Part shown: piece by piece, positions 1-49,992 of the stretch
How positions within the stretch are numbered: position 1 is the stretch's first letter
How the letters are laid out: each line of letters opens with the position of its first letter
Assembly (NCBI RefSeq): GCF_003991155.1
Contig: NZ_CP031293.1
Direction: 5' to 3' (one strand)
Source: Escherichia coli
GTDB taxonomy: Bacteria > Pseudomonadota > Gammaproteobacteria > Enterobacterales > Enterobacteriaceae
Length of the DNA stretch: 64,000 nucleotides
Made by a program: the position numbers and the translations under genes
The notes under the pieces: model-generated
The model's input: only the letters and a program-made list of their open reading frames with translations
The model's database searches: none
What the model was told of the DNA's origin: nothing

Positions 1-153
1 CAGTAAATCGATAAACACATCTTCACTATCCAGCAGGAACGGGTTCATGCCGGCTTTAATAATTGCTTCTTCACGATAAGCGCGAGTGGTACGTTTTACT
101 GGCTCAATAACACGAATGCGGAACGGTTCAGGGAGATGTTTAAAGTTTTCCAT
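1..153 (-). CDS. tnaA: tryptophanase, N-terminal 51 codons only (gene runs off the window start)
   Basis: Minus-strand translation from ATG at 151-153 gives [51 protein letters not shown], the TnaA N-terminus with one substitution versus the K-12 protein as recalled; an in-frame ATG also lies 15 nt upstream. Confidence 0.85.
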
Positions 154-359
154 TACGTAATCCTTCATTTATTTTAAGGACAGAAAATTACGGAGATATT
201 GCAAATGCAATACCCGATAGTTCGCTAAAATATTTGCAAGAGACATCATTTATAAAAATGAATGATAGTCTTTACAAAAGCAGAAATAAGATATGCCAAA
301 CAGACAGGTTAGATGGAATTCAATCTATTTGACAAAAATGATGGTTACAGAAAGGCAAG

Positions 360-434
360 TTAAGGGTGGTGTTCAACAATCTTGTTGTCGATATTGAACC
401 ATTTTGAGGTCACACATATATGTAAGATATTCAT
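360..434 (-). CDS. tnaC: tna operon leader peptide (24 aa, MNILHICVTSKWFNIDNKIVEHHP)
   Basis: Own translation of minus strand; W12, D16 and terminal P24 are conserved; positions 21 and 23 differ from K-12 TnaC as recalled (DHRP); ~206 nt spacer to tnaA start. Confidence 0.8.
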   Translation of the reverse strand: MNILHICVTSKWFNIDNKIVEHHP

Positions 435-509
435 AATGCACTTATCCTCGAAAGACACGAGGTTACAGTATAATACTCAAGAAATTTGTCTATCCTGAAA
501 TTGTTTAAA

Positions 510-525
510 TGTGAATCGAATCACA
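510..525 (-). promoter_or_regulatory. CRP site TGTGAATCGAATCACA upstream of tnaC, with candidate -10 (TATACT/TATTAT) near 463-478
   Basis: Perfect TGTGA-N6-TCACA palindrome about 75-90 nt upstream of the tnaC ATG; the tna operon is known to be CRP-dependent. Confidence 0.6.
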
Positions 526-1488
526 GTTGGTTATTAGTGATATAAAATGACAATGATTTTGCATCATTAAAAATATTTATCAATTACGTTGATAAAACTA
601 TTACATGCAGGTGTTAATAAATGGTGATAAAAATGGTAAATGACAGAGATGTAATGTTGAAGATGATTCCTTGATGAGAATTATGTTCTACGGAAGTGGT
701 ACATCAACTTTTTGGGAAGGTATATAAATAAAGCAGAATAGATCACGTTTGGCACACATCTGATTACTCATGTAATTAACTAATTTCAGCACGGTTTTTC
801 TTGCTTTTTTAGAGTAATTAATATACCGATGCCCAAGATGAATATCATAAGAAATACTATCAAAATAATGTCTGGAATGAAATATTATACAGATGAATGA
901 TTGCGGTTACCTGATGATTTAAATAATGAATATGTGATTTGCTTGTTATATAAGAAAATTTAAATATTGCCGATAGTGTATTGAATAGTGCCTGCTTAAC
1001 GGGGTCCCCTGTTAAGTTGTCAAGCATGTTTATGAGACTGCTGGGGGATAAAAAGTCCCGGCACACATCCTGCTAACAGGACATCACTGCACTGTCTGAG
1101 CGATAAACGCTTGGTTGTGTCGTATTCCACGGCTCATTTTACGTGTGTAGTACGTTTGGGTATTGGTTTTCGGAGAGCAGCAAAGGCTGACAGGAACAAT
1201 GCCCGTTTGATGAGTTTATTGTCTCGTCTTGGCGGATGTTCGCCACATATTGATGAACCGTAACGCTAGGTAAAAAGGGGAAGCAAGACCCCACTGTTTC
1301 ACTTCAAAAGCCTTGCTTATGTAGAGTGATGAGATGGAGTGCCAGAAGGCCTGGAGTGGCAGAATAACGACTGCGGCATGCGTACCGGGAGCGATCATGG
1401 TTTGTTGTACCAGTGCCTGAGTGATGTCTGCCGCGGGGCGTTTTTCAAGATGAGGCTCAAGCTTGCAGGGCTGCCAGCTTCTTTTCAC

Positions 1489-2883
1489 TTAGCGAAGCCA
1501 GTTTTTCCGGCCTACGGCTACTCCCCGTAAGGCGTTCTCTGCGATGTTGTTGTCGATTTCCACCCAGCCATTGCTGCAGTACACGTTCAGGCCATCCCAC
1601 TGTTTCAGCAGGTATGCGAACGCTTTTGCCGTATCTGAGTGACGCGACAGTGTTTTCATCTGTTGCTGTATCCAGTCATACAGTGACTGCATCAGTGGCG
1701 CGGCTCTGGCTTTTCTTGCCGCCAGACGCTGTTCTGCTGAACAGCCCCGGACCTCTGCCTCGATGGCATACAGTTCACCGATACGCTGCAGGGCTTCCGT
1801 GGTGATGTAGGTGGGCGCTCTTGCATGCACATCGTGGATTTTTCTCCGGGCATGAGCCATACACGCGGCTTCCGTTATTCTGCCGGATTCGTATAACGCC
1901 CGGTAACCACCGTAAGCATCGGCCTGAAGCACACCGCTGTAACCGGCCAGGTGATTTTGTGGATGGATACCTTTCCGGTCCGGACTGTACGCGAACCAGA
2001 CCGCCGGGGGCATCTGTGAACCGGCGTTACGGTCATCACGGACGTAGACCCACAGCCGGGCTGTCCGGGTTTTACCGCTGCCCGGCTCCTGGACCGGGAC
2101 GGGGATATCATCAGCATGGACTTTACCGGGCATCAGCACATACTGGCGCAGGACGTCATACAGCGGCTCCAGCAGTTCAGCAACAGCACCTGTCCAGCGC
2201 CCCAGTGTGGCACGGCTCAGCTCCACTCCCTGACGACGGTATATTTCTGACTGGCGGTATAACGGCAGATGGTCTGCATATTTCCCGGTGACAACATGGG
2301 CCAGAAGCCCCGCTCCGGCATAACTGCGTGCAATGGGTTTTGAAGGTACTGGTGCCTGCACGATATGGTCGCACCGGCAACAGGCCTGTTTCGGACGTTG
2401 TGTTTCGATAACCTTAAAGGCGCTGCTGATAAGCTCCAGTTGCTCTGACACATCACATCCCAGAGAACTGAGTTCACCACCACAGGCAGGACAGCATTCC
2501 TCTTCCGGCCGGATAACCCGGGTTTCACGGGGAAGTGAGGCCGGTAACGGTTTACGGGCTGAAGACTGGCGCAGGGCGGATGGCAGTACCGGGTCATATT
2601 GCTCACCCAGCGTTTCCGCCATTTCTTCCTGAAGTGCGCTGATTCGCTCCTGTGCTTCCTGTATCTGCCGTTCGGTTTTTGCACGAAGTTTTTCTGAGCT
2701 TTTACCGAACTGCATACGTTGCAGTTTCGCAACCAGCGCCTTCAGCCGGTTGATTTCGGAAGCATAAGCCGCCACCCGCTGTGAGAGCAGGCGGTTGTAT
2801 TCAGCCATCTGGCGGATGGTGTCCTGTTGCGTCTGCAACAGTGCCCGCAGGCGGGCGTTCTCATGAGCAAGTGAGGTGTCCAT
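1489..2883 (-). CDS. IS66-family transposase TnpC (orfC), C-terminus apparently disrupted
   Basis: 464-aa ORF with zinc-finger-like CxxC pairs and DDE-region conservation; ends at KNWLR where family members continue; a 90-aa ORF (1216..1488) lies immediately downstream in the same orientation. Confidence 0.75.
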
Positions 2884-2902
2884 ATCCTCACTTTACAACG
2901 GG

Positions 2903-3250
2903 TTATATGCGGATTCCAGCGCGTTCCGTTCGTTTCGGGTGCTTCCAGTTGATACCTTCAAGAAGCATGGATAACTGAGCCGGAGTAAGGTGCACCTTGC
3001 CGTCACGGGTGACTGGCCAGACGAAGCGGCCCCGCTCCAGGCGTTTGGTGAAGAGGCACAGTCCGTCACTGTCAGCCCACAACACTTTTATCTGGTCACC
3101 CCGGCGTCCGCGGAAGATGAACAGGTGTCCGGAGAACGGGTCATCCTTCAGGACGTTCTGAACTTTTGATGCCAGGCCGTTAAAGCCATTTCGCATATCG
3201 GTGATACCTGCAACCAGCCAGATACGCGAACCTGCAGGGAGAGATATCAT
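2903..3250 (-). CDS. IS66-family TnpB (orfB)
   Basis: 115-aa ORF MISLPAGSRIWLVAGITDMRNGFNGLA..., the characteristic IS66 Orf2 N-terminus. Confidence 0.8.
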   Translation of the reverse strand: MISLPAGSRIWLVAGITDMRNGFNGLASKVQNVLKDDPFSGHLFIFRGRRGDQIKVLWADSDGLCLFTKRLERGRFVWPVTRDGKVHLTPAQLSMLLEGINWKHPKRTERAGIRI

Positions 3251-3927
3251 CAGTGGCTGCTCCCTTTTATTTCGCGGATAAGTGTCTGTAATAACGCCGG
3301 CGTCAGTTTACCTTTAAGCCTGAGAGTTCCGGCCGGCAGAACCAGCTCACAACACAGACTGTCGGACGGTGTATTTATCTGCTCTGGTTCCTGTGCGGGG
3401 GCCGGGATTTTATTATCCGGCTCCGGCGTTAACGTCACGGGAAGCAGTGCCGGCATATTTTTTCCGGAAGGCAGCAGGCCACCTTTCCGGTATTGATGGC
3501 GCCAGTTGAAGAGCAGGTTATCGTTGATTCCGTTTTCCCGGGCGATCTGCGCCACACAGGCTCCGGGCTGCAGTGACTGCTCCACTAAGGCGATTTTAAA
3601 CTCATAAGGGAAGTTGGGCCGCCGGGGACGTTTTTTTACCACGGGGGCTTCGGATATAACGGTGCTTTCAGGACGTACGACTGGTACCGTGGAAAATTGT
3701 CCGTAAAGGCAGGCATCAAGTTCCTGCTCCGACATGCCTGCGGGCAAAGGCCACGAAAGGCCAGCTCTCCGAAAGCGCACGAACATACTACAAACTGTTG
3801 ATTTTGGTACACCCAGGCGACGCCCGGCCACAACCCGGGGTAAATGTTCTTCAAAGTGAAGACGTAAAGCTTCAGTGATCCAGGTCCGGTGTTTCATACG
3901 ATAGTGTCCATTAAAAATGATGGACAT
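3250..3927 (-). CDS. chimeric ORF: IS21-family IstA-like N-terminus (HTH + LSWPLPAGMSEQELDACLY) fused to IS66-family TnpA (orfA)
   Basis: C-terminal ~130 aa (PNFPYEFKIALVEQSLQPGACVAQIARENGINDNLLFNWR) is IS66 TnpA-like; N-terminal ~95 aa resembles IS21 IstA N-termini. Confidence 0.55.
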   Translation of the reverse strand: MSIIFNGHYRMKHRTWITEALRLHFEEHLPRVVAGRRLGVPKSTVCSMFVRFRRAGLSWPLPAGMSEQELDACLYGQFSTVPVVRPESTVISEAPVVKKRPRRPNFPYEFKIALVEQSLQPGACVAQIARENGINDNLLFNWRHQYRKGGLLPSGKNMPALLPVTLTPEPDNKIPAPAQEPEQINTPSDSLCCELVLPAGTLRLKGKLTPALLQTLIREIKGSSH

Positions 3928-3976
3928 TATTTTTGTAGAGCCGGAGGAAACAGACCAGACGGTTTAAATGAGCCGG

Positions 3977-4180
3977 TTACTTTCCCTCGCGCCATTGTTG
4001 TCGCCATTTGAACAACAGATTGGCGTTAATGCCATTTTCAAGAGCAAGTTTTGAGATGGATATCCCGGGTTCACAGGAGGCAGCAACGAGCTGCTGTTTA
4101 AATTCGGGAGGATAATTAGGGCAGCCTTTTCGCCTGCCGGGAGTCACATTTTTCTGCATATCTGACACTTTGGTTCCCAC
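3977..4180 (-). pseudogene. second IS66-family tnpA-like fragment (67 aa)
   Basis: PNYPPEFKQQLVAASCEPGISISKLALENGINANLLFKWRQQW is paralogous to the TnpA segment at 3250..3650; far shorter than intact TnpA. Confidence 0.5.
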
Positions 4181-4836: not shown

Positions 4837-6099
4837 ATGGCTATCATCATGGGGATCATCGCTGACGATTTTACTGGCGCGACTGATATTGCCTGCTTTA
4901 TGGCAGAGAATGGTTTTCGGGTTGCGCTGTTGCCCGGTTTGCATGCACTCACGCAGTCATGGGATGAAGAGGCTGATGCAATAGTCATTTCACTGAAAAG
5001 TCGTTCATTACCCGCGAATCAGGCAATTGAGCAGACTTTGCTAAGTTATCATTGGTTGCGTGACTGTGCGGGGGCGCAGCAGATCTATTTCAAATATTGC
5101 TCAACATTTGATTCCACTGCAGATGGCAATATCGGCCCGGTCAGCGATGCACTGATGAAGGTGATGGGCACACCTTATGTCGTGCATTGTCCCGCTTTGC
5201 CCCAAAATGGCCGAACAGTTATCCATGGACATCTTTTTGTTAACGGTATACCCCTTAACGAATCCGGCATGGAAAAACACCCCCTGAATCCAATGACCGA
5301 CACTAACCTGCTGCGCGTACTGGCTGCACAAACCCCCAATAGAGTTGGTAATCTTGATCTGAGGACAGTTCAACAGGGCGAGCAAGCCATCACCACCGCA
5401 CTTTCCCGTTGTCAGGCTGAAGGGAAGCAACACATTATTGTCGATACATTAACTGAAAATGATCTGCAAAGCCTGGCAAATGTATTACGCCATACACCTT
5501 TACTGGCTGGGGGATCCGGACTGGGTGGGGCGTTAGCCGCTTTTTTACAGCAACATCCTTATACGCCAGCCTCCGCGTTTCCCAATCCTGCCAGAACGGT
5601 AATCTTCTCCGGAAGTTGTTCAGTGATGAGTAATCGACAGGTGGATGCTTATAAATCGCATGCAGCCACGCAGTTGCTTGATGTTGCTCGTTGTCTGGAC
5701 GATGGCAATAGATATATCGATCAATTACTTGAATGGACAATTGCGCACATCAATGATCCGCTTGCTCCGTTGATTTACGCCACTCAACCTGCGGATGTGT
5801 TGAAATCTATACAGCAAACCTGGGGTGAACACGCGGCAAGTAAAGCCATTGAACAAACTTTTGCGCAGCTTAGCCAAAAATTGCAGGTCGCGGGTGTCAA
5901 CACTTTTATTGTTGCTGGGGGAGAAACTTCCGGGACTGTAGTGGAAGCGCTAAATGTGAAACGGCTAACAGTGGGGAGCACTATTACGCCGGGCGTACCA
6001 TGGGTTTTTTCGGCAGAACCGCCCCTGGCACTGGCGCTGAAATCTGGCAATTTTGGGGAGCCTGATTTTTTCATTAAGGCTCAGGAGCATGGATTATGA
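4837..6099 (+). CDS. four-carbon acid-sugar kinase family protein (DUF1537; OtnK/YgbK-like 3-oxo-tetronate kinase homolog)
   Basis: N-terminal IADDFTGATD motif and overall length (420 aa) typical of DUF1537 kinases; RBS GAGGGAG upstream; stop overlaps next start. Confidence 0.75.
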   Translation: MAIIMGIIADDFTGATDIACFMAENGFRVALLPGLHALTQSWDEEADAIVISLKSRSLPANQAIEQTLLSYHWLRDCAGAQQIYFKYCSTFDSTADGNIGPVSDALMKVMGTPYVVHCPALPQNGRTVIHGHLFVNGIPLNESGMEKHPLNPMTDTNLLRVLAAQTPNRVGNLDLRTVQQGEQAITTALSRCQAEGKQHIIVDTLTENDLQSLANVLRHTPLLAGGSGLGGALAAFLQQHPYTPASAFPNPARTVIFSGSCSVMSNRQVDAYKSHAATQLLDVARCLDDGNRYIDQLLEWTIAHINDPLAPLIYATQPADVLKSIQQTWGEHAASKAIEQTFAQLSQKLQVAGVNTFIVAGGETSGTVVEALNVKRLTVGSTITPGVPWVFSAEPPLALALKSGNFGEPDFFIKAQEHGL

Positions 6100-6734
6100 G
6101 TGAACTCATCGAACAAAAATTACGTGAACAACTCGTCTATTACGGGCGTTCGCTCTTTATGCGCGGTTTCAGTAGTGGCGGTTCCGGCAATATCAGCGTC
6201 AAACTGGCTGAAGACCGTTTTTTGGTCACGCCGACCAATTCCTGTCTTGGCGAGTTAGATAGTGAAAGAGTGAGTCTTATCGATATTCATGGCAACCATA
6301 TCAGTGGTGATAAGCCGTCAAAAGAGGTGCCTATGCATCTTGCCTGGTATCGACATCGTCCGAACTGTGGAGCGGTGGTACATCTGCACTCGCCATGGCT
6401 GACGGCACTTTCGTGTTTACCTTGCACAACACCAGAGAATTGCTTACCGCCGCTCACTCCCTATTACGTGATGCGTGTGGGGAAATTACCATTATTGCCT
6501 TATTTCAAACCAGGACATGAGGATATCGCTACGGCATTAAGCCATATAGCGGCCGACTCTACCGCAGCTCTGTTGGCGAATCATGGCCCCGTTGTCAGCG
6601 GAAGAACATTGCGCGAAGCGGTATTTAATGCCGAAGAGCTGGAAGACAGTGCCCGTATCTGGCTGACCTTAAAACCACTTGGCTATGTTCCTCTTTCGGC
6701 AAAAGACATCGCTGAACTGGAACAGGCCAGATGA
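6096..6734 (+). CDS. class II aldolase/adducin-family protein (OtnC/YgbL-like decarboxylase/aldolase)
   Basis: 212 aa, SGGSGNISVK and HLHSPW metal-binding-type motifs; ATGA overlap with upstream kinase gene. Confidence 0.75.
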   Translation: MSELIEQKLREQLVYYGRSLFMRGFSSGGSGNISVKLAEDRFLVTPTNSCLGELDSERVSLIDIHGNHISGDKPSKEVPMHLAWYRHRPNCGAVVHLHSPWLTALSCLPCTTPENCLPPLTPYYVMRVGKLPLLPYFKPGHEDIATALSHIAADSTAALLANHGPVVSGRTLREAVFNAEELEDSARIWLTLKPLGYVPLSAKDIAELEQAR

Positions 6735-6749
6735 TAACGAGGTGAGAGG

Positions 6750-7556
6750 ATGATACCCGAGCAAAGGCGAGACTTTATTTACCGCTATGTCCATGAGAAA
6801 AACGTTGCTTCATTTAATGAACTGGCTGAGTTGATGAGCGTTTCGCATATGACAGTGCGTCGTGATATTCAATTACTGGAAGAAGAAGGCAAAGTTATTA
6901 CCATAAATGGCGGCGTTAAGCTGAACAACCAACTTAAATTGGAGTTACCGTGGCGAGAAAAAGCTGAACTGCATCATGATATTAAGCGTGACATGGGGCA
7001 GCTTGCTGCGATGTTGATCGAACCCGGGCAGACACTCTATTTAGATGCCGGAACCTCATTATTTGAGGTCGCAAAAGCAATCGTTGCCAGCCAGTGCTTT
7101 AATCTCACTATCGTGACAAATGATTTCTCTATCAGCCATTACCTGATGGATATGCAACATATCACGCTTTACCACACCGGGGGATTGGTAGATCAACGCA
7201 ATCGTTCTTGTTTGGGGAAAAGTGCAGCTGATTTTCTGCGCACGATTAATATCGATGTTGCATTTCTTAGCTCCTCTTCATGGGATACACAAAGAGGAAT
7301 GTCAACACCAAATGAAGGTAAAGCTACAGTGAAAGAGGCGGCGCTTACGGTCTCCCGTCGCCGCGTATTAGTGTGTGATAGCAGTAAATTCGGTAAATAC
7401 GGAATGTTCCATATATGCGAGCTCAGCCAATTGACCGATATCATTTCAGATAACCAGTTGCCTTTATCGGCGCAGGAAAGCATTACACAGCTGGGCGTGA
7501 AATTACATCTGGTTAATAGCCGGGAGGGAACGCAGCATGTTGAAGCTGGCGGCTAA
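6750..7556 (+). CDS. DeoR-family transcriptional regulator
   Basis: N-terminal HTH (FNELAELMSVSHMTVRRDIQLLEEEGKV) and C-terminal sugar-phosphate-binding-like domain. Confidence 0.8.
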   Translation: MIPEQRRDFIYRYVHEKNVASFNELAELMSVSHMTVRRDIQLLEEEGKVITINGGVKLNNQLKLELPWREKAELHHDIKRDMGQLAAMLIEPGQTLYLDAGTSLFEVAKAIVASQCFNLTIVTNDFSISHYLMDMQHITLYHTGGLVDQRNRSCLGKSAADFLRTINIDVAFLSSSSWDTQRGMSTPNEGKATVKEAALTVSRRRVLVCDSSKFGKYGMFHICELSQLTDIISDNQLPLSAQESITQLGVKLHLVNSREGTQHVEAGG

Positions 7557-8313
7557 TCTCGACTGGTTGTTCACAGAACTGCCGATGTCTGCACGGTTTC
7601 ATGCAGCCAGACGGGAGGGGTTTCGTGCTGTTGAAGGAATGTTTTTCTGTCAGCATTCTCTGGATATGCTGAGAATTGCGCAGCAAGAATCGGGAATGAG
7701 CGTGGTGCTGATGAATGCTCCGGCAGGTGACTGGCTACGAGGTGAGCGTGGCCTGGCTGCACTTCCTGGCCGCGATGATGAATACCTGAACAGTTTGCTC
7801 ATTGCCCGCCGATATGCAGGGACGCTGGGATGCAGGCAGGTTCATGTTATGGCGGGCCTTCGGGATCACTCTGTGACAGAAGATGAACAACTGGAGTTAC
7901 TGGTTAATCGCTTGTGCATAGCCTGCGATGTGCTGGCGGAAAAAGATATTACAGTATTAATCGAACCCCTGAATTCTGAAGATATGCCTGGCTATATTAT
8001 TAATAGCCTTCCTCGAGCAAAAGATATTATCCGGCGGGTTTCTCACCAAAATATTGGTTTGCAGTTTGATATTTATCATTGCCAGAAAATTCATGGTAAT
8101 GTCACCCAAAATATAGATAAATATTTATCAATAGTTAAGCATTTTCAGATTGCCTCTGTGCCTGGTCGCCACGAACCAGGTTCTGGTGAGCTAAATGATA
8201 CGTGGATATTAAATTTTATTAATCAAAAAAACTTCCAGGGCTGGATTGGCTGTGAGTATAAACCTTCCACACTGACAACCGAGTCATTACGCTGGATGAA
8301 ACCATATTTATAA
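7537..8313 (+). CDS. Hyi/OtnI-like TIM-barrel isomerase (hydroxypyruvate / 2-oxo-tetronate isomerase family)
   Basis: 258 aa; strong similarity to E. coli Hyi as recalled (AGDW..GERG, LIEPLN, GW(I/V)GCEYKP, LRWM.PY). Confidence 0.8.
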   Translation: MLKLAANLDWLFTELPMSARFHAARREGFRAVEGMFFCQHSLDMLRIAQQESGMSVVLMNAPAGDWLRGERGLAALPGRDDEYLNSLLIARRYAGTLGCRQVHVMAGLRDHSVTEDEQLELLVNRLCIACDVLAEKDITVLIEPLNSEDMPGYIINSLPRAKDIIRRVSHQNIGLQFDIYHCQKIHGNVTQNIDKYLSIVKHFQIASVPGRHEPGSGELNDTWILNFINQKNFQGWIGCEYKPSTLTTESLRWMKPYL

Positions 8314-8334
8314 AATCTTTTTCTGGAGGAAAAT

Positions 8335-9147
8335 ATGTCGGATACCGTCATAATTTCGTTGGCACCTGTGGCCGCAGACTGCACCAGAGTCATACCCGAA
8401 GAATTGGCGCAGGAAATTTTGGCTTGCGTTGAATATGGAGCAGCAATTGTTCATTTACACGTTCGTGATAAGCAAGGCAAGTTAACGCCAGATACAACCG
8501 ATTTCCAGTCAACCATTGATCTCGTCAGACATCAATCAGACTTAATTATTCAGGCTTCTACGGGCGGAGTCTCTGCCATGTCAATAGCCGAGCGTTGCGC
8601 GCCTCTGGACTGCCCTGGCGTTGAAATGGCGTCGCTGAATGTAGGGTCGGTGAACCTTGGTGATGCCGTCTACGCTAATCCAACACCGGATGTCGAATAT
8701 TGTTCACAGCAAATTACCGCGCGTAGTATTGTTCCTGAATTTGAAGTGTTTGAAATTGGAATGGTTAATAATATTTTAACCCTCAATGAAAAGATAAAAT
8801 TCAGAAACCCCATGTTATTTAATATTGTACTTGGTCATAGAGGAAGTTCTCCGGCGACAATAGATGCATTAATTGCGATGCGCAGTATGATCCCGCGAGA
8901 TGCATTATGGGGTATTACTCACTTTGGCAGAAAGAATTTTGATGTTATTGCTGCTGCGGTAGCTATGGGAGCTAGCGAGGTCAGAATTGGTTTTGAAGAT
9001 AGTTATTATTTAAGTGCAGAGGAGATGGCGGAACAAAATTATCAGCAAGTTAAAAAACTCGCCAGACTTATTCGTAGTATGGATAAACAAGTGGCCTCAC
9101 CGGAAATTGCCCGACGGATATTAAATATCCCAATCCGGCAGCAATGA
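8335..9147 (+). CDS. DUF849 / BKACE-family beta-keto acid cleavage enzyme
   Basis: 270 aa with HLHVRD motif characteristic of 3-keto-5-aminohexanoate cleavage enzyme family; good RBS (GGAGGAAAA). Confidence 0.7.
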   Translation: MSDTVIISLAPVAADCTRVIPEELAQEILACVEYGAAIVHLHVRDKQGKLTPDTTDFQSTIDLVRHQSDLIIQASTGGVSAMSIAERCAPLDCPGVEMASLNVGSVNLGDAVYANPTPDVEYCSQQITARSIVPEFEVFEIGMVNNILTLNEKIKFRNPMLFNIVLGHRGSSPATIDALIAMRSMIPRDALWGITHFGRKNFDVIAAAVAMGASEVRIGFEDSYYLSAEEMAEQNYQQVKKLARLIRSMDKQVASPEIARRILNIPIRQQ

Positions 9148-9168
9148 CGACAGACAGGACATTTTACT

Positions 9169-10479
9169 ATGACTATAACAACCCTAATACAAAAAGCAGG
9201 ACTTACAATCTGTATAGCTGGCGGTGTACTCGCGGCAACAGGCGGGTTGATGCAATCCGCTGTGCTCTGGCAACCTGGATTGGTGATGCTTACTGCAGGC
9301 TTTGCCCTCGGTGCTGGTTACTGGCCGATACTTCGAAGTTATCAATTCACGTTATGGATTATCGCAGGTTTCGTGGCTGCGATGACCTGGTCGATGGATT
9401 TGATTGTCTGGGGCGGGTTTAACATTACTCACAAATGGATCGTGTTTTTAGTCATTCAGGCAACGATGTTCAGTATGGGTACCAAACTGACGATTCAGGA
9501 TTTTATCGATGTTGCCAAAATGCCATGGGCGGTGTTTATTGGCACCTTCTGCCACTTTGTGATTATGCCGTTGCTGGGGCTAACCATTACGCTGTTATTT
9601 GATTTTCCGCCAGAAGTTGCGGTGGGGATCCTGCTCATAGGTGCCTGCCCTAGCGGTTTATCATCAACTGTTATGGTTTATATCGCTAACGCGAACCTCG
9701 CGCTGGCGGTATCAATCGCCGCAGTTTCTACGCTGGCAGCAACGGTTATGACGCCGTTGTGGGTAAATTTGCTGGCTGGCTCCATGATTGACATCCAACT
9801 TACCGCAATGGTTATGGACGTGGTGAAAATTGTCCTTATACCAATTGGTGCAGCAATTTTGCATGACTACCTGAAAACGTACGCTGGAGTTCGAGGTCGA
9901 CGAACCGTGCAGCTTCTCGCCGGGATCTGCGCCCTGTGGCTAATTTACATGAGCTCTGGTGGTTGGGACTATCTCTTTGACAACGCCAGTGCAGACGTAC
10001 AAATGTATGCCGTGGTACTGAACTTTGTCACGGGTGGCATTGTATGGGCGTTGTTCTATAACTGGCTGTACAGTCGCGTGGAAGGCATTCAAAAGATTAT
10101 GCCAACCATCTCTATGATTGGGATCATCTTCTTTACCACCACCGCTGCGGCAGCTGGTCGTGATAACCTGTTGCAGGTTGGTTTCCTGCTTTGTTTCGCC
10201 ATGTTGTTGCATAACCTTGGCGGTTTCCTGATTGGCTATCTGATGAGTCGCTGGATATTCCGCATGGACGAACAATCGTCCCGTACCGTAGCCTTTGAAG
10301 TGGGATTGCAAAACGGAGGTATGGCGTCAGGTCTGGCAGCGGCAATGGGCAAACTGGCTACAGTTGGCCTTGCCTCTGCAGTCATGACACCTCTCGGCAA
10401 TGTGAGTGGTTCGCTGTTGGCAAACTACTGGCGCAAAAAAGACGCTCGTAAAGCACAGACTGCGAATAAAGACAAATAG
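9169..10479 (+). CDS. BASS-family (bile acid:sodium symporter / SBF-like) transporter with N-terminal extension
   Basis: Highly hydrophobic 436-aa ORF, GACPSGLSSTVMVYIANANLALAVS signature region; start codon uncertain. Confidence 0.65.
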   Translation: MTITTLIQKAGLTICIAGGVLAATGGLMQSAVLWQPGLVMLTAGFALGAGYWPILRSYQFTLWIIAGFVAAMTWSMDLIVWGGFNITHKWIVFLVIQATMFSMGTKLTIQDFIDVAKMPWAVFIGTFCHFVIMPLLGLTITLLFDFPPEVAVGILLIGACPSGLSSTVMVYIANANLALAVSIAAVSTLAATVMTPLWVNLLAGSMIDIQLTAMVMDVVKIVLIPIGAAILHDYLKTYAGVRGRRTVQLLAGICALWLIYMSSGGWDYLFDNASADVQMYAVVLNFVTGGIVWALFYNWLYSRVEGIQKIMPTISMIGIIFFTTTAAAAGRDNLLQVGFLLCFAMLLHNLGGFLIGYLMSRWIFRMDEQSSRTVAFEVGLQNGGMASGLAAAMGKLATVGLASAVMTPLGNVSGSLLANYWRKKDARKAQTANKDK

Positions 10480-10514
10480 TCTGCCTGTTGTAACCTTTCA
10501 AAAGGAAACTCAAT

Positions 10515-10934
10515 ATGACGACATTGACCCTGAAACAAGCATTGCTTGCAGTAGAGTATGCGCTTGATCTTGCAGTGCAACAATATGCTGGCCGTCCTTT
10601 AAGTGTGGCAGTATGCGATGTTAATGGTGAATTGCTGAGCTTTGCCCGCATGGATAGAGCCAAACTGTTAACTATTGAATTAACGCAGCGTAAAGCACGA
10701 ACCAGTAGTCGTCTGGGCTGTACGACAGCAGCATTCTTACAGCGTCTACAAAAAGAGCAACTTGATATCAGCTATTTTGGAGATCCCCGGTTTACCGCAT
10801 TACCAGGAGGGATCCCTATTCTGGTTAAAGGAAAATGCATTGGTGCTGTTGCTGTGGGGGGATTATCCGCACGAGAAGATCATGATGCGGCACAGGCTGT
10901 CGCAGATAAACTGCTTGAGGAGATGACCAAATGA
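10515..10934 (+). CDS. GlcG/DUF336 (HbpS-like) protein
   Basis: 139 aa, typical DUF336 length and GAVAVGG glycine-rich motif. Confidence 0.6.
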   Translation: MTTLTLKQALLAVEYALDLAVQQYAGRPLSVAVCDVNGELLSFARMDRAKLLTIELTQRKARTSSRLGCTTAAFLQRLQKEQLDISYFGDPRFTALPGGIPILVKGKCIGAVAVGGLSAREDHDAAQAVADKLLEEMTK

Positions 10935-11581
10935 AAAAAATAGCCATGCTTCACACCAGTTCAGCCACGCTTGCGGTGATGCAACAACTGATAGGCGATA
11001 TCATGCCTGAGGCTGAAGTGATGCATCTGGTTGAGGAGTCTATGATTAAGCAGGTGATGAAAGCGGGCGGTGTTACGCCAGATATCGCCGCACGGATCGC
11101 TGATTACATACGGATCGCTGAAAAAGCCGACTGCGATATTTTCATTACCGCTTGTTCATCAATTGGTACTGCTGTCGAACAGTGTCAATTTATGACTTCA
11201 GTACAACTGGCACGGATTGACTGTGCGATGGTGGATGAAGCAATCAACAAAGGGGAACACATTGCTGTGCTGGCAACGGTGGCCACAACGCTGAAACCGA
11301 CGCTTGATTTTGTCCGGCGAAAAGTTCAGGAAAGTGGAAAACAGCGGATTATTACACCTGTTTTAATGGAAGAAGCCTTCCATGCGTTATTGAATGGTGA
11401 TATGGGAACGCATGACCGCATTGTGAGTGAAGGATTACAAAAGGCCTTTGGGCAGGCAGATGTTATTATGTTAGCGCAGGCATCGATGGCACGGGTGCTG
11501 CAAAATATGCCTGAGCCTCCGGTTCCGGTATTAACATCGCCAGAAAGCGGTATTCGCTGGTTGAAAACATTCGCGAGTTAA
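10931..11581 (+). CDS. AroM-like / Asp-Glu-hydantoin racemase superfamily protein
   Basis: 216 aa; architecture resembles E. coli AroM as recalled; ATGA overlap with upstream gene; family assignment tentative. Confidence 0.45.
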   Translation: MKKIAMLHTSSATLAVMQQLIGDIMPEAEVMHLVEESMIKQVMKAGGVTPDIAARIADYIRIAEKADCDIFITACSSIGTAVEQCQFMTSVQLARIDCAMVDEAINKGEHIAVLATVATTLKPTLDFVRRKVQESGKQRIITPVLMEEAFHALLNGDMGTHDRIVSEGLQKAFGQADVIMLAQASMARVLQNMPEPPVPVLTSPESGIRWLKTFAS

Positions 11582-12737: not shown

Positions 12738-13219
12738 GCTGGAGCTGGTAATCCGGCTGAGTTTTGAAGCGAACCGTTTTCTTCGATTTCCGTCTGGGAA
12801 GTAATCAGACTCAGCACGGACAAAAATTGCAGCGCCCGGATGGCACGGGTAATGGTCAGATTACCGGATGCGGATTAGGTGCCGCGTAGTGAAGCGCGCC
12901 GGATTCAGAGTCGCTAGTATGGTCATACAGCGAAGGAAAGCCGCCAATTTTTGTGCCGGACGTGGAATATACAGCGAATGCTGATGTAAAAGGCGCTCGT
13001 AATATTTTAGCTGCGGGACATACTGTGCTTGCCAGGGAAGGGATGGTGCAGTCAGACCACCCGTTGAAGCGAAATGAACCTGAACCATACGACAACCTGA
13101 AAGTAGCAGGAATCCACGCCCTGAAGGACGTGGAGGAAGTCAAATCGATGGTAGGTTGTAGGTTTATGGCAACATCTGCTTCATTAGATACATGTCGATA
13201 TACAGAACATATATCACAT

Positions 13220-15205: not shown

Positions 15206-15541
15206 ATGTTTAGAACAGAAGACATCATCGATGAGATAACCCAATGGATTGATTCAAATTTACATAAGCCGCTGAAGATAGAGGATGTTGCTGCGCGGGC
15301 AGGATACTCGAGGTGGCATCTTCAGCGGATTTTTGTGCAGGTGAGAGAAATTAGCCTTGGGAAGTACATAAGAGATACGAAACTTAGACTTGCAGCAAAA
15401 GATCTTATCGCGACTAATGAGCCAGTGATGGTTATCGCCTTTAAATATGGATTCGATTCACAACAAACTTTTACTCGGATTTTCTTTAAAAAATATAAAT
15501 TGCCACCATTGAAATATAGGGTAATGACTCCAACTTATTGA
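15206..15541 (+). CDS. MarA/SoxS/Rob-type small AraC-family regulator, 3' end replaced by IS1 sequence
   Basis: Two HTH regions (SRWHLQRIF... / ...QQTFTRIF) like SoxS; IS1 left end begins at 15520 inside the ORF so the last ~7 codons and the stop are IS1-derived. Confidence 0.7.
15511..15519. repeat. IS1 target-site duplication, left copy (GAAATATAG)
   Basis: Identical 9-mer directly flanks both IS1 ends. Confidence 0.8.
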
Positions 15542-16038
15542 TAGTGTTTTATGTTCAGATAATGCCCGATGACTTTGTCATGCAGCTCCACCGATTTTGA
15601 AAACGACAGCGACTTCCGTCCCAGCCGTGCCAGGTGCTGCCTCAGATTCAGGTTATGCCGCTCAATTCGCTGCGTATATCGCTTGCTGATTACGTGCAGC
15701 TTTCCCTTCAGGCGGGATTCATACAGCGGCCAGCCATCCGTCATCCATATCACCACGTCAAAGGGTGACAGCAGGCTCATAAGACGCCCCAGCGTCGCCA
15801 TAGTGCGTTCACCGAATACGTGCGCAACAACCGTCTTCCGGAGCCTGTCATACGCGTAAAACAGCCAGCGCTGGCGCGATTTAGCCCCGACGTATCCCCA
15901 CTGTTCGTCCATTTCCGCGCAGACGATGACGTCACTGCCCGGCTGTATGCGCGAGGTTACCGACTGCGGCCTGAGTTTTTTAAATGGCGGAAAATCGTGT
16001 TGAGGCCAACGCCCATAATGCGGGCGGTTGCCCGGCAT
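15535..16038 (-). CDS. insB: IS1 InsB (expressed as InsAB' by frameshift)
   Basis: 167-aa ORF matching IS1 InsB. Confidence 0.85.
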
Positions 16039-16232
16039 CCAACGCCATTCATGGCCATATCAATGATTTTCTGGTGCGTACCGGGTTGAGAAGCGGTGTA
16101 AGTGAACTGCAGTTGCCATGTTTTACGGCAATGAGAGCAGAGATAGCGCTGATGTCCGGCGGTGCTTTTGCCGTTACGCACCACTCCGTCAGTAGCTGAA
16201 CAGGAGGGACAGCTGATAGAAACAGAAGCCAC
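15957..16232 (-). CDS. insA: IS1 InsA
   Basis: [42 protein letters not shown]... Confidence 0.9.
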
Positions 16233-16287
16233 TGGAGCACCTCAAAAACACCATCATACACTAAATCAGTAAGTTGGCAGCATCACC

Positions 16288-16522: not shown

Positions 16523-17704
16523 TCAGATCTGCTCAGAAAGTGAATCAATGTAGTCAGCATACCACTGCATCATTTCACGGCGACCATCCAGATACTGGGC
16601 ATGATTATAGGTACCTCTGATAGCGTTTTTATCCATATGAGCTAACTGCATTTCAATCCAGGCAGAATTAAAGCCCTGTTCGTGCAGAATTGTACTCATG
16701 GTGTGTCTGAAACCGTGCCCTGTGAGTCTTCCCTTATATCCTAGTAATTCAATGACTTGGTTTATGCTTTCCTTACTAATTGGTTTGCGAGGATCGTTCC
16801 TACCGATAAAGACCAGAGGATGATGTTTTGAGATTGGTTCAAGTTGCTTAAATAGCGCAATGACCTGCTCAGAGAGCGGCACAATATGAGGTCGCTTCAT
16901 CTTCATTACTTCTGCCGGGATCTCCCATAATTTTGTCTCAAAATCGATATCCTCCCAGCGTGCGAAACGCAATTCTTGAGTTCGTACACCAGTTAGCATA
17001 ATGATTTGAGTGGCTGTCTTAGTGATAATACTTCCGGTATAACCCGCCAGATCATTGAGGAAGTGGGGAAGTTCATTAGCAGTAAGAAAGGGAAAATGTA
17101 CTTTTTTCGGTGTAGCTAAAGCACTGGCAAGATCGGGAGCAGGGTTGTAGTTAGCCCGACCAGTAACAATTGCATAGCGGAACACCTCTCCACAGCGCTG
17201 GCGGACCTTACGCATTTTCTCCAGAGCTCCACGTTTTTCCATTTTACGCAATGCTTCCAGTAACTCCATTGGTTTGATTTCAGCAATAGGGCGTTTGCCA
17301 ATATAGGGAAAAATATCTTTTTCAAAGGTATCAATGATTTCATCACGATAGCGTAATGACCACCGATCGGCTTTTGACTGATGCCATTCTCGAGCAACGG
17401 CCTCAAATGTGTTTTTCAAACTCATTTGCAGCGCGATTTTTTCTTCTTTTTTTGTCTCACCCGGATCGCATCCTGCAGCGAGGATTTTCCTAGCTTCACT
17501 GCGTTTTTCGCGAGCGTCGGCTAGAGTTACATCGGGGTATACGCCAATAGAAAGCATCTTTTCTTTGCCAGCAAAGCGGTACTTCATACGCCAATATTTA
17601 GAACCATTAGTGTTAATGAGTAGATACATACCGCCACCATCAGACAGCTTATAGGGCTTTTCTTTTGGTTTTGCGGTTTTCACTTTAATATCAGTTAACG
17701 CCAT
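16523..17704 (-). CDS. P4-type (CP4-like) tyrosine integrase
   Basis: 393 aa, C-terminal HGFRHT...Y catalytic signature; lies beside the 3' end of selC in the same orientation. Confidence 0.85.
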   Translation of the reverse strand: MALTDIKVKTAKPKEKPYKLSDGGGMYLLINTNGSKYWRMKYRFAGKEKMLSIGVYPDVTLADAREKRSEARKILAAGCDPGETKKEEKIALQMSLKNTFEAVAREWHQSKADRWSLRYRDEIIDTFEKDIFPYIGKRPIAEIKPMELLEALRKMEKRGALEKMRKVRQRCGEVFRYAIVTGRANYNPAPDLASALATPKKVHFPFLTANELPHFLNDLAGYTGSIITKTATQIIMLTGVRTQELRFARWEDIDFETKLWEIPAEVMKMKRPHIVPLSEQVIALFKQLEPISKHHPLVFIGRNDPRKPISKESINQVIELLGYKGRLTGHGFRHTMSTILHEQGFNSAWIEMQLAHMDKNAIRGTYNHAQYLDGRREMMQWYADYIDSLSEQI

Positions 17705-17999: not shown

Positions 18000-18094
18000 T
18001 GGCGGAAGATCACAGGAGTCGAACCTGCCCGGGACCGCTGGCGGCCCCAACTGGATTTGAAGTCCAGCCGCCTCACCGGAGACGACGATCTTCC
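18000..18094 (-). tRNA. selC: tRNA-Sec (selenocysteine)
   Basis: Reverse complement reads GGAAGATCGTCGTCTCCGGTGAGGCGGCTGGACTTCAAATCCAGTTGGGGCCGCCAGCGGTCCCGGGCAGGTTCGACTCCTGTGATCTTCCGCCA (95 nt, CCA end), matching E. coli selC as recalled. Confidence 0.9.
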
Positions 18095-43872: not shown

Positions 43873-44736
43873 TTATTCAATGTTCTGAATCTGCTCGCGC
43901 ATCTGCTCAATCAACACTTTCAGCTCAATCGCGGAGTTTGTCACTTCGGCATTGATAGACTTCGAAGCAAGAGTGTTCGACTCGCGGTTGAACTCCTGCA
44001 TCATAAAGTCCAGACGACGGCCAACCGCTTCTTTTTTCTTCAGAATGTTGTAGGTCTCTTTGACATGCGCTTCGAGGCGATCCAGTTCTTCGGCAACGTC
44101 AATTCGTTGTGCCAGCAGAACCAACTCCTGCTCCAGACGGTTGTTTTCCAGTTGCACCTGAGCATCTTCCAGCTTCGCGACCAGACGCTCACGCTGCCAT
44201 TGCAGGATTTCCGGCATATGGGCGCGGACTTTGACCACTTCGGCGCTGACGCCTTCCAGACGCTGCTCAATCAACACTTTCAGCGCCTGACCTTCGGTTT
44301 CACGTGCGATGATAAAGTCGTCCAGCGTACCATCCAACGCCGCGAGAATTTCAGCGGCAATCGCGTCGAGATCCTGCTCCTGGGCTGCCATCACGCCCGG
44401 CCAGCGTAGAATATCAACCGGATTGATTTCCCCTTCGTCACTCTGCATTTTTACCCAGTTCGCGGCAGTTACCAGCTGTTTAGCCAGTTTTTCGTTGAGG
44501 ATCAGCTCACCTTGCGCGCTAACATCTGGCTCATAGCGCAGGGTACATTCCACTTTACCGCGCGTCAGGCGAGAACGAATACGCTCACGAACGACAGGTT
44601 CAAGGCTACGGAACTGCTCCGGCAGACGAAAGTAAGTTTCCAGATAACGCTGGTTTACCGAGCGCATTTCCCAGGTTGCGCTCCCCCATTCACCCTTGAT
44701 TTCACGCCGGGCGTAGGCGGTCATACTGCGGATCAT
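43873..44736 (-). CDS. yicC: YicC-family stress-induced protein
   Basis: 287 aa MIRSMTAYARREIKGEWGSATWEMRSVNQRYLE... Confidence 0.9.
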   Translation of the reverse strand: MIRSMTAYARREIKGEWGSATWEMRSVNQRYLETYFRLPEQFRSLEPVVRERIRSRLTRGKVECTLRYEPDVSAQGELILNEKLAKQLVTAANWVKMQSDEGEINPVDILRWPGVMAAQEQDLDAIAAEILAALDGTLDDFIIARETEGQALKVLIEQRLEGVSAEVVKVRAHMPEILQWQRERLVAKLEDAQVQLENNRLEQELVLLAQRIDVAEELDRLEAHVKETYNILKKKEAVGRRLDFMMQEFNRESNTLASKSINAEVTNSAIELKVLIEQMREQIQNIE

Positions 44737-44862
44737 AGACGTTCCTGTTTATAAAAGGAGAGGTGGAAGGATTATAGCCATCGATGCCTTGTCAGGATAG
44801 GAATAACCGCCGGAAGTCCGTATAATGCGCAGCCACATTTGTTTCAAGCCGGAGATTTCAAT

Positions 44863-45579
44863 ATGCGTCCAGCAGGCCGTAGCAATAATCAGGTGCGTCC
44901 CGTTACCCTGACTCGTAACTATACAAAACATGCAGAAGGCTCGGTGCTGGTCGAATTTGGCGATACCAAAGTATTGTGTACCGCCTCTATTGAAGAAGGC
45001 GTGCCGCGCTTCCTGAAAGGTCAGGGCCAGGGCTGGATCACCGCAGAGTACGGCATGCTGCCACGTTCTACCCACACCCGTAACGCGCGTGAAGCAGCGA
45101 AAGGTAAGCAGGGTGGGCGCACAATGGAAATCCAGCGTCTGATCGCCCGTGCTCTTCGCGCAGCAGTAGATTTGAAAGCGCTGGGTGAGTTCACTATTAC
45201 GCTGGACTGCGACGTGCTTCAGGCTGATGGTGGCACGCGTACCGCGTCGATTACGGGTGCCTGCGTGGCGCTGGCAGATGCGCTACAGAAGCTGGTGGAA
45301 AACGGCAAGCTGAAAACCAACCCGATGAAAGGGATGGTAGCCGCAGTTTCTGTCGGCATTGTCAACGGCGAAGCGGTTTGCGATCTGGAATACGTTGAAG
45401 ACTCAGCCGCAGAGACCGACATGAACGTAGTGATGACCGAAGACGGGCGCATCATTGAAGTGCAGGGGACGGCAGAAGGCGAACCGTTCACCCACGAAGA
45501 ATTACTCACCTTGTTGGCGCTGGCCCGAGGGGGAATCGAATCCATTGTAGCGACGCAGAAGGCGGCGCTGGCAAACTGA
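44863..45579 (+). CDS. rph: ribonuclease PH (intact 238-aa form)
   Basis: From [16 protein letters not shown]... to ...ATQKAALAN; no rph-1-type frameshift. Confidence 0.95.
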
Positions 45580-45585
45580 TTTTTA

Positions 45586-45612
45586 AGGCGACTGATGAGT
45601 CGCCTTTTTTTT
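45586..45612 (+). terminator. pyrE attenuator (intrinsic terminator between rph and pyrE)
   Basis: GGCGACT-GATG-AGTCGCC hairpin followed by T8. Confidence 0.8.
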
Positions 45613-45644
45613 GTCTGTAGAAAAGTAAGATGAGGAGCGAAGGC

Positions 45645-46286
45645 ATGAAACCATATCAGCGCCAGTTTATTGAATTTGCGCTTAGCAAGCAGGTGTTAAA
45701 GTTTGGCGAGTTTACGTTGAAGTCCGGGCGCAAAAGCCCCTATTTCTTCAACGCCGGGCTGTTTAATACCGGGCGCGATCTGGCACTGTTAGGCCGTTTT
45801 TACGCTGAAGCATTGGTGGATTCCGGCATTGAGTTCGATCTGCTGTTTGGCCCTGCTTACAAAGGGATCCCGATTGCCACCACAACTGCCGTGGCGCTGG
45901 CGGAGCATCATGACCTGGACCTGCCGTACTGCTTTAACCGCAAAGAAGCAAAAGACCATGGTGAAGGTGGCAATCTGGTCGGTAGCGCGTTACAAGGACG
46001 CGTAATGCTGGTGGATGATGTGATCACCGCCGGAACGGCGATCCGCGAGTCGATGGAAATTATTCAGGCCAATGGCGCGACGCTTGCTGGCGTATTGATT
46101 TCGCTCGATCGTCAGGAACGGGGGCGCGGCGAGATTTCGGCAATTCAGGAAGTTGAGCGTGATTACAACTGCAAAGTGATCTCTATCATCACCCTGAAAG
46201 ACCTGATTGCTTACCTGGAAGAGAAGCCGGAAATGGCGGAACATCTGGCGGCGGTTAAGGCCTATCGCGAAGAGTTTGGTGTTTGA
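45645..46286 (+). CDS. pyrE: orotate phosphoribosyltransferase
   Basis: 213 aa from [23 protein letters not shown]... Confidence 0.95.
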
Positions 46287-46290
46287 TAAA

Positions 46291-46318
46291 AAACGCCGGA
46301 TGGTAAATCATCCGGCGT
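46291..46318. terminator. hairpin between convergent pyrE and slmA
   Basis: CGCCGGATGG...ATCCGGCG inverted repeat. Confidence 0.5.
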
Positions 46319-46322
46319 CATC

Positions 46323-46919
46323 TTACTGCAACTGCGCAGCAATCAGTGGCCAGCGGGCGTCAAAATCATCCGTCGGGCGGTATTTAAATTCGCTGCGGAC
46401 AAAGCGTGACAGCATACCTTCACAAAATGCCAGCAACTGGCTTGCCAGCAGCGTTTCATCGGTGGTGTAACCTTCACCCTCACGCATTCTCTTTTCACGC
46501 AATACCTGACGCAACTGCGCCTCAATACGCTCGAACAGCTGGTTGATGCGCCCTTGCAGGCGATCCTGTTCAAACATTAGCGCATGACCAGTGAGGATGC
46601 GGGTCAGGCCAGGATTACGCTCACCAAAACCGAGAAGCAGCAACACAATCAGACGCAGGCGCGCTGTGGTGTCCTTCTCATCTTTCAGAATCAGATTGAT
46701 GCGAGTAATCAGGCTATCTTCGATAAACTCAATCAGGCTATCGAACATGCGGGTCTTACTGGGGAAGTGGCGATACAGTGCCGCTTCGGAAACGCCGACA
46801 GAGGCGGCCAGTTTTGCCGTCGTGATACGTTGGCTTCCATCGCTGGATTCCAGCATCAGCGCCAGAGACTGAAGTATTTCCTCGCGACGGTTCCTTTTCG
46901 CAGTTTGTTTTTCTGCCAT
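46323..46919 (-). CDS. slmA: nucleoid occlusion factor SlmA (TetR family)
   Basis: 198 aa from [20 protein letters not shown]... Confidence 0.95.
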
Positions 46920-47025
46920 GTTACAAAATACCCCTGAAAATAAGCACTTGCCAGGCGGCACCCACGCTATGACCGCAAACGAAATGTTTGCGGCTATGTT
47001 ATGACGTTATTCGGATGCGTATGTG

Positions 47026-47481
47026 TTACTGACGACCAGAGTGACCAAAGCCGCCTTCACCGCGGTCGGTGGCGTCGAAATCTTCCACCAGATTAAATTC
47101 AGCCTGTACTACCGGAACAAAAATCATCTGGGCGATGCGTTCGCCTGGTTGAATGGTGAAGCTGTCCTGACCACGGTTCCACACGGAAATCATCAACTGG
47201 CCCTGATAGTCAGAATCGATCAATCCTACCAGGTTACCAAGCACGATACCGTGCTTATGTCCCAATCCGGAGCGCGGCAGCATCATTGCCGCCAGTGAAG
47301 GATCGGCAATATGAATCGCCAGCCCGGTCGGAACCAGCGTAGTGTCACCCGGAGCCAGTTCTACGGCGTCGTCGAGACAGGCACGCAGGTCAAGTCCGGC
47401 AGAGCCAGAGGTGGCATAAGTCGGGAGCGGAAATTCCTTCCCAACGCGCGGGTCCAGAATCTTAACGTCGATTTTTTTCAT
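47026..47481 (-). CDS. dut: dUTP diphosphatase
   Basis: [34 protein letters not shown]... Confidence 0.95.
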
Positions 47482-49717: not shown

Positions 49718-49975
<258 letters not shown>

Positions 49976-49992
49976 GTACTTAGAGGAAATAA

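Follow-up and report, generated by a model that had tools for sequence, protein, structure and literature searches.

The window analysed here is a stretch of 64,000 nucleotides of Escherichia coli DNA (contig NZ_CP031293.1, assembly GCF_003991155.1). At its very beginning lie, on the minus strand, the control region and the first codons of a tryptophanase (tna) operon, in which the leader gene tnaC precedes tnaA and tnaB. The operon is found on an island next to selC, the gene for tRNA-Sec, and the part of it that falls outside the window can be read at the identical locus of AR Bank #0349 (locus L001). The term canonical is used for the tna operon at its usual place between mnmE and mdtL. The features on which the argument depends are as follows.

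1..153, minus strand: 5' end of tnaA (codons 1-51), island copy, identified by translation; the gene runs on past the start of the window and has 471 codons in complete genomes
154..359, minus strand: tnaC-tnaA spacer of 206 nt (220 nt in the canonical operon), the presumed Rho utilization (rut) and Rho-termination region
183..392, minus strand: highly diverged block, from codon 15 of tnaC to ~30 nt before the tnaA ATG
360..434, minus strand: tnaC leader gene, 24 codons and a TAA stop, product MNILHICVTSKWFNIDNKIVEHHP, identified by translation and as Pfam Tna_leader
435..509, minus strand: tna promoter and 5' untranslated region, nearly identical to canonical alleles; the transcription start is assumed to lie where it does in K-12
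510..525, minus strand: CRP-binding site TGTGATTCGATTCACA, the same as the canonical site at 16 of 16 positions
L001 4739-6154: full island tnaA, with the one substitution S34A and with K270 present

Translation of positions 434 to 360 gives a leader peptide ending in ...KIVEHHP, as the original prediction, made from the letters of the window, had read it. The K-12 ending that it gave, ...KIVDHRP, was correct, and the canonical TnaC of the same lineage ends in the same way. Relative to this resident copy the island leader carries two real substitutions, D21E and R23H, together with a feature that had been passed over, a TAA stop codon in place of TGA. W12, D16 and P24 are all still there, as far apart as in the canonical leader, and the stop codon comes immediately after Pro24; K11, F13, N14, I15, I19 and H22 are kept as well. 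The substitution that had been noticed within the first 51 residues of TnaA is S34A, and it is the only one in the protein. From the CRP site to codon 14 of tnaC there is 1 difference in 98 columns from the resident canonical allele of sequence type (ST) 457; there are 2 differences from four of the five other canonical alleles, and 10 from that of isolate 103. CRP-dependent function of the island promoter is predicted from this sequence identity alone; a simple sigma-70 scan called the CRP-dependent tna promoter in neither the island nor the canonical allele and is uninformative here. The Shine-Dalgarno sequence of tnaA lies within the 3' end of the spacer, and the region around it is conserved. 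The island products match the expected families in Pfam, namely PF08053 (Tna_leader) for TnaC, PF01212 (Beta_elim_lyase) for TnaA and PF03222 (Trp_Tyr_perm) for TnaB, and the annotation of 21 independent complete genomes names the three genes in the same way.

These genomes were found when window positions 1-1000 were searched by megablast against 5,426 complete E. coli genomes. The 21 match at 100% over the full length and each has two tna places, while 5,371 genomes match positions 1-535 only, at ~86%. In AR Bank #0349 a complete island tnaC-tnaA-tnaB lies between setC and selC, and towards the opposite end of the record the canonical tnaC-tnaA-tnaB stands intact, with mnmE on one side and mdtL on the other. 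The carriers, each independently assembled, were obtained from cattle, pigs, sheep, dogs, mink, wastewater and patients. The 100% identity among all 21 over 25 kb suggests that they form one lineage. MRY15-117 and MRY15-131 have been typed as ST457 (PMC5430464), so that at least two members of the lineage with the island operon belong to this type. Beyond the complete genomes, the exact TnaB sequence is present in 349 assembly-index blocks and the exact TnaC sequence on 349 contigs, with the same context wherever it was examined. It is thus very probable that a complete and apparently functional second tnaCAB operon is carried as cargo by a ~44-kb selC island in one E. coli lineage, which has retained its canonical copy.

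The surroundings of the operon, listed here in order along the window, are those of such an island.

526..1083, no strand assigned: A+T-rich (68%) DNA between the tna promoter and insertion sequence (IS) remnants, present in this lineage only
1084..1510, minus strand: IS110-family transposase remnant, frameshifted and truncated (from the RefSeq annotation of the identical L001 7085-7511)
1489..4159, minus strand: IS66-family element with an ISCro1-like tnpC truncated at its C-terminus, tnpB, tnpA and a small transposase open reading frame (ORF) (from the ORFs and the annotation of L001 7496-10160)
15520..16287: IS1 of 768 bp, target duplication of 9 bp (GAAATATAG); none of the 21 complete genomes has it
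16523..17704, minus strand: island tyrosine integrase, adjoining the 3' end of selC (L001 21747-22928, shifted by +777 owing to the IS1 in the window)
18000..18094, minus strand: selC (tRNA-Sec), into which the island is integrated, extending from its 3' side in the direction of window position 1

In AR Bank #0349 the island extends for ~44 kb between setC and tRNA-Sec. An exact 25-bp direct repeat of the tRNA-Sec 3' end, TTGGCGGAAGATCACAGGAGTCGAA, marks the distal boundary near setC, ~44 kb away and outside the window. Carriage of the island varies within the species: 21 of 5,426 complete genomes have it, and in other strains the cargo found at selC is different. The original prediction had remarked on the closeness of selC, on the lack of mnmE upstream of the promoter and on the A+T-rich DNA and IS66 element found there instead, and all of this holds: tRNA-Sec is at 18000-18094, tna homology stops at the CRP site, and unrelated DNA and a truncated IS66/ISCro1 element follow, with an IS110 remnant between them. 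It had offered two explanations, an island-borne second tryptophanase operon or a rearrangement junction, and had proposed looking for a second tnaCAB beside mnmE. That copy is present and intact in the mnmE-mdtL interval of the same chromosome and, with the integrase and the attachment-site repeat, establishes the first explanation. That a single tna locus was brought near selC by rearrangement or misassembly is almost certainly wrong. Its only support is the unusual closeness of tna and selC, and it is contradicted by the two tna places in every one of the 21 complete genomes, by the island with its repeat and integrase, and by an island leader allele distinct from the canonical one. Recurrence of the arrangement in 21 independent assemblies rules out misassembly or a private rearrangement, and an artefact common to them all is unlikely, as they come from different laboratories and platforms.

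The coding regions of the island operon are ordinary E. coli alleles; its real peculiarity is a block of ~210 nt formed by the 3' end of tnaC and the spacer. Island TnaA (471 aa) is 99.8% identical to the canonical protein and 98.2% identical in DNA, and the lysine that binds pyridoxal phosphate, K270, is present in its SAKKD motif. TnaB, which lies outside the window in L001, has 415 aa and 10 substitutions (97.6% protein and 96.2% DNA identity). The ratio of nonsynonymous to synonymous change (dN/dS) is 0.011 for tnaA and 0.077 for tnaB. Together the island coding sequences are 96.7-97.3% identical to six canonical E. coli alleles, which are 96.4-98.5% identical among themselves, while identity to other Escherichia species is 91.7-94.3% and to other genera ~81-88%. 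An origin of the coding regions in a foreign genus is therefore rejected, as the identities fall within the E. coli allelic range. Segment by segment, island tnaA differs from canonical alleles no more than these do from one another, and only nt 1-600 of tnaB are moderately elevated, at 4-7% divergence. Recent gene conversion from the resident ST457 copy is unsupported, since island tnaA is no nearer to the resident allele than to those of other lineages. A plasmid origin is likewise rejected: the plasmid matches are mislabelled chromosomes and ~81%-identical Salmonella tnaAB only, and none of the plasmids searched matches the spacer or the A+T-rich flank. The operon had been described from the outset as divergent, a description that is right for the 3' end of tnaC and the spacer but not for TnaA.

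The diverged block has no close counterpart elsewhere. A sensitive blastn search of the 5,426 genomes returned 21 at 100% identity and 5,375 at no more than 72.8%, with no intermediates. Within tnaC, 5 of the 33 positions that fall inside the block differ from the canonical sequence, and none of the 42 positions 5' of it does (Fisher p = 0.014). The five changes yield D21E, R23H and the TGA to TAA replacement, along with synonymous changes at codons 15 and 20. The spacer is 67-71% identical to the canonical one and has a 13-nt deletion, and the block as a whole has ~60 substitutions plus indels. For scale, the spacer was compared with those of ten mnmE-linked reference alleles, which included five further E. 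coli alleles and those of E. marmotae, E. whittamii and two other Escherichia species representatives. The ratio of spacer distance to the mean synonymous distance of tnaA and tnaB is 2.58 for the island and 0.12-0.76 for the ten canonical alleles, in which the spacer is usually more conserved than synonymous sites. The synonymous distances (dS) of the island genes themselves, 0.08 for tnaA and 0.14 for tnaB, are inside the E. coli range. The contrast is sharpest in the first 75 nt after the tnaC stop, which are 92-100% conserved across canonical alleles and are of canonical type in E. albertii too. Here the island has 22 mismatches where 3.9 would be expected (Poisson p = 2.5e-10), the expectation being the rate of island-private coding changes, a generous neutral yardstick.

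Within the block, transitions outnumber transversions by 39 to 21, and G has been lost 16 times and gained 5 times, a net loss. In the 75 nt around and after the stop, C makes up 27% and G 11% in the island, and 28% and 17% in the canonical allele. A weakened rut site as the cause of the divergence is unsupported by this composition. The island spacer RNA (window 154-362, minus strand) has a minimum free energy of -45.2 kcal/mol and a z score of -4.27, with 0 of 200 shuffled sequences folding better, whereas the fold of the canonical spacer is not outstanding (z = -1.45). A hairpin ~40-60 nt before tnaA is common to both spacers; in the island a U-rich tract comes after it, and the hairpin was marked as terminator-like.

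A donor for the block was not found in E. marmotae, E. whittamii, E. albertii, two other Escherichia representatives or 38 other Enterobacterales, in a scan of the genome collection that was not exhaustive, the E. coli type strain and E. fergusonii being outside its coverage. Nor was one found in two scans of JGI metagenomes (one with an exact 24-mer, the other with a degenerate WFNIDNKIVEHHP-stop pattern), in two scans of IMG/VR, in plasmids or in the 5,426 complete E. coli genomes. The block is 49-57% identical to the corresponding sequence of other genera, and the canonical spacer is 51-59% identical to the same sequences.

Two accounts of the block can be weighed. In the first, the operon is a mosaic, in which the block was imported by recombination, or survives as an unconverted relic, from an unsampled tna leader well outside known Escherichia diversity. 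Divergence along the operon is heterogeneous, at ~1-2% in tnaA, 4-7% in the first 600 nt of tnaB and ~26% in the block; the left edge of the block is sharp, falls inside tnaC and takes in synonymous changes; and intermediate alleles are missing among the 5,426 genomes. Against these points stand the failure to find a donor in any of the collections just named and a block that is no nearer to any other genus than the canonical spacer is. Its transitions and transversions give no sign of saturation, and its edges also match the limits of functional constraint. The chance of a mosaic origin is put at about even. Alternatively, the block may have changed where it now lies, once captured, either because a re-tuned attenuator was positively selected or by local hypermutation. 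There is ~5-fold more change in the block than island-private coding change, the net loss of G keeps or strengthens the bias of C over G preferred by Rho, the RNA is more structured than its shuffles to a degree that the canonical spacer is not, and the functionally potent R23H is included. Against this, the synonymous changes in codons 15 and 20 point to a regional cause and not a selective one, ~60 substitutions plus indels are much for a recently captured segment of 210 nt, and the 21 identical copies leave no intermediates to record the process. Divergence in place is the less likely of the two, though a serious possibility, and a mosaic origin is favoured with the even confidence already stated.

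What the operon would do can be set out from the standard mechanism. CRP-cAMP would turn on the tna promoter, and a ribosome translating tnaC would stall at Pro24 and the stop codon once free tryptophan is bound. The stalled ribosome would mask the C-rich, G-poor RNA just past the stop and block the loading of Rho, so that transcription could proceed into tnaA, whose product tryptophanase makes indole, and tnaB, which encodes a tryptophan permease. The parts for this mechanism are present on the island, the rut site as a candidate that fits in composition, and the default expectation is thus of catabolite-sensitive, tryptophan-induced and Rho-attenuated expression. Most likely the island operon depends on CRP and is attenuated through TnaC and Rho in the normal way, but at a shifted tryptophan threshold; expression, induction by tryptophan and dependence on Rho are predicted properties, and the sequence, context and distribution are observed ones.

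Three features predict a shift in set point: R23H, the UAA stop and the rebuilt Rho-loading region. The R23H substitution was isolated by Cruz-Vera and colleagues; when the K-12 leader carries it, basal reporter expression is more than 20-fold higher and half-maximal stalling needs ~3-fold less tryptophan (PMC8429421, PMC10941005). D21E is absent from these two mutant studies; both E21 and the HHP ending are natural in other Enterobacterales, where HHP is common. The UAA stop can be read by release factor 1 (RF1) as well as RF2, and it has been reported that RF1 releases TnaC efficiently, TnaC preferentially blocking RF2 (PMC8450073). In this respect too the island leader has natural counterparts. 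Across L004, L005, L037, L064 and 20 other loci, tnaC ends in UGA in E. coli and E. albertii, and in UAA in most of the other Enterobacterales sampled as well as in E. marmotae, E. whittamii and two further Escherichia representatives, a distribution that bears on the RF2-specific model of TnaC stalling. E21, UAA and the diverged spacer could each modify the effect of R23H. The direction of the net shift, itself a prediction, is not one that can be read from the sequence. The cell probably holds two tryptophanase operons with different predicted tryptophan thresholds, together with a higher gene dose.

Several observations weigh against a working operon of this kind. The island differs at 29% of the 75 nt that canonical alleles conserve, so that Rho loading could change or vanish; release by RF1 at UAA could weaken induction and offset R23H; the operon lies among pseudogene debris; in one draft assembly tnaA is broken by a gap or deletion; and with 21 identical copies, conservation since capture says little about selection. 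It might be supposed that the operon is a decaying passenger, a tnaCAB fragment swept in with core-gene debris, which has lost its regulation or expression and whose spacer is no longer constrained. The IS66 and IS110 remnants and the melA' and bgl-PTS' (phosphotransferase system) pseudogene fragments on its flanks would fit this, as would the interrupted tnaA and a spacer far more diverged than in any canonical allele. Yet no complete genome shows damage to the three ORFs, the CRP site, the promoter, the Shine-Dalgarno sequence or the residues essential to TnaC. Relaxed constraint alone is insufficient for 22 mismatches in 75 nt against ~3.9 expected, and the spacer retains its bias of C over G and out-folds shuffled sequence. 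Decay is therefore considered improbable, and a functional operon remains the preferred reading. A stronger form of it, held only tentatively, is that the island operon is a selectively maintained, re-tuned tryptophan sensor, with His23, UAA and a rebuilt rut site and spacer, whose threshold or basal level would be unlike that of the resident operon. If so, ST457 cells would respond over a wider range of tryptophan, or would make indole constitutively under catabolite derepression. The divergence of the block would then be adaptive, or would also act as a barrier to gene conversion with the resident copy, and one genome would hold natural paralogous arrest-peptide attenuators with distinct set points.

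How the operon came to the island is suggested by its borders. The tna module extends exactly from the CRP site to ~110 nt past the tnaB stop, and in every species compared the upstream limit of tna homology is this same site, at ~525-528 of the window. Apart from its last ~100 bp, which match IS110-family elements, the A+T-rich flank at 526..1083 has no similar sequence in the 5,405 other complete E. coli genomes, and it has no relative in plasmids or upstream of tna in 44 other species. Immediately beyond island tnaB (L001 1965-2979, outside the window) there are a bgl-type PTS pseudogene fragment and a melR-melA piece of 660 bp, 97% identical to the E. coli core region, in which melA is truncated. 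These fragments indicate that pieces captured from E. coli-type chromosome make up this part of the island like a patchwork. As the tna module lies amid them and the IS66 and IS110 remnants, it too was most likely taken from a chromosome resembling that of E. coli, through IS-mediated events.

The remaining cargo consists of an otnK-type acid-sugar cluster, pseudouridine and nucleoside genes, IS debris and CP4-type accessory genes (YeeU/CbtA, RadC and antirestriction). The cluster, at window 4837-11581, encodes OtnK (3-oxo-tetronate kinase), an aldolase, a DeoR regulator, a hydroxypyruvate isomerase-family protein, a 3-keto-5-aminohexanoate cleavage-family protein, a bile acid:Na+ symporter-family transporter, GlcG and an Asp/Glu racemase-family protein, and is presumably an acid-sugar catabolic module. 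Short remnants of IncFII RepA and InsQ/TnpB-family genes inside the island (window 12780-13085, L001 18783-19085) suggest past plasmid and IS traffic. The IS1 at 15520-16287 is the sole difference between the window and all 21 matching genomes; it interrupts a small helix-turn-helix gene near its 3' end, beside the island integrase. On the far side of selC, a ~17-kb element with its own integrase lies between dinD and yicC (window ~44000-61100). It is prophage- or satellite-like, with a PerC-family regulator, a phage DNA ejection protein, a DUF5906 primase-like gene, an Ash-family protein, an AntA/AntB antirepressor and a tyrosine integrase adjoining yicC. A match to the JUMPstart RNA (RF01707, 55 bits, E = 6e-10) at window 53198-53236, on the plus strand, falls inside the DUF5906 gene and antisense to it.

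Some tna loci met with elsewhere are also unusual. E. albertii TW07627 has a canonical-type leader (...KIVDHRP, UGA) but an IS1 in the tnaC-tnaA spacer (L065 1427-2501), and in the species representative of E. albertii a contig breaks at the same place in the spacer; it is plausible that this IS1 is the cause of indole-negativity. In assemblies labelled Proteus mirabilis (L059 3246-6248), tnaCAB is found away from mnmE, between a 3'-phosphoadenosine 5'-phosphosulfate (PAPS)-reductase/DUF3440 gene and a fimbrial operon; the TnaC is MNALYTYVNLKWFNVDNRIVEHRP, the spacer has 173 nt, and tnaA is 81% identical in DNA to that of E. coli. In E. coli O157:H7 NE 1092-2 (L057 1-480) a frameshifted ShET2/EspL2-family effector gene, and not mnmE, is directly upstream of the canonical tna promoter.

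As a ligand-sensing arrest peptide TnaC is a textbook case, and indole is a major signal in the gut and between bacteria. In the searchable literature no report was found of a second or island-borne E. coli tna operon or of tna with selC, and nothing on the peptide KIVEHHP or on tryptophanase among the features of ST457. The locus is visible in public data, where RefSeq names its genes correctly, and yet appears to be undescribed. Its value lies in a natural R23H/UAA/diverged-rut attenuator that stands beside a canonical one, and in the unexplained excess divergence of a regulatory block of ~210 nt. It amounts to a natural experiment on how the tryptophan threshold is set, on the importance of the RF2-specific UGA and on the extent to which the spacer sequence is needed. 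It may bear on the physiology of ST457 as well; this multidrug-resistant lineage occurs, by the listed isolation sources, in livestock, wildlife, wastewater and patients.

Among known systems the closest is the canonical E. coli operon (mnmE-tnaC-tnaA-tnaB-mdtL), which shares with the island its CRP site, promoter, 24-codon leader, spacer of ~200 nt, tnaA and tnaB. It differs in lying next to mnmE, in D21 and R23 of the leader, in its UGA stop and in its 220-nt spacer, and the flanks of the island copy are unrelated. The hypersensitive laboratory mutants TnaC(R23H) and TnaC(R23F) are a second point of reference (PMC8429421, PMC10941005), as the His23 of R23H is found again in the E. coli-type TnaC of the island. 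Those mutants have the K-12 leader and UGA stop, whereas the island allele adds E21, UAA and a different rut site and spacer. The tnaCAB of Salmonella enterica plasmids provides a precedent for mobile tna outside its usual chromosomal site. The plasmid copies are ~81% identical in tnaAB and bring indole production to a species without tna; the island copy, unlike them, is a paralogous duplicate of E. coli type in a recipient that already has tna. The tna cluster of Haemophilus influenzae is another precedent for horizontally carried tna.

Islands integrated at selC are well known in E. coli and Shigella, among them LEE, PAI I-536 and SHI-2. The present island resembles them in its integration at the 3' end of tRNA-Sec, its adjacent tyrosine integrase and the repeat at its far border, and also in its IS debris and CP4-type accessory genes. 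It is distinguished by cargo that is metabolic (tnaCAB, the otnK-type cluster and the pseudouridine and nucleoside genes), with no type III secretion system, haemolysin or aerobactin. Judged by sequence, with its rut site as a candidate, the island operon belongs to the tnaCAB family, and the island that carries it is typical of those at selC.

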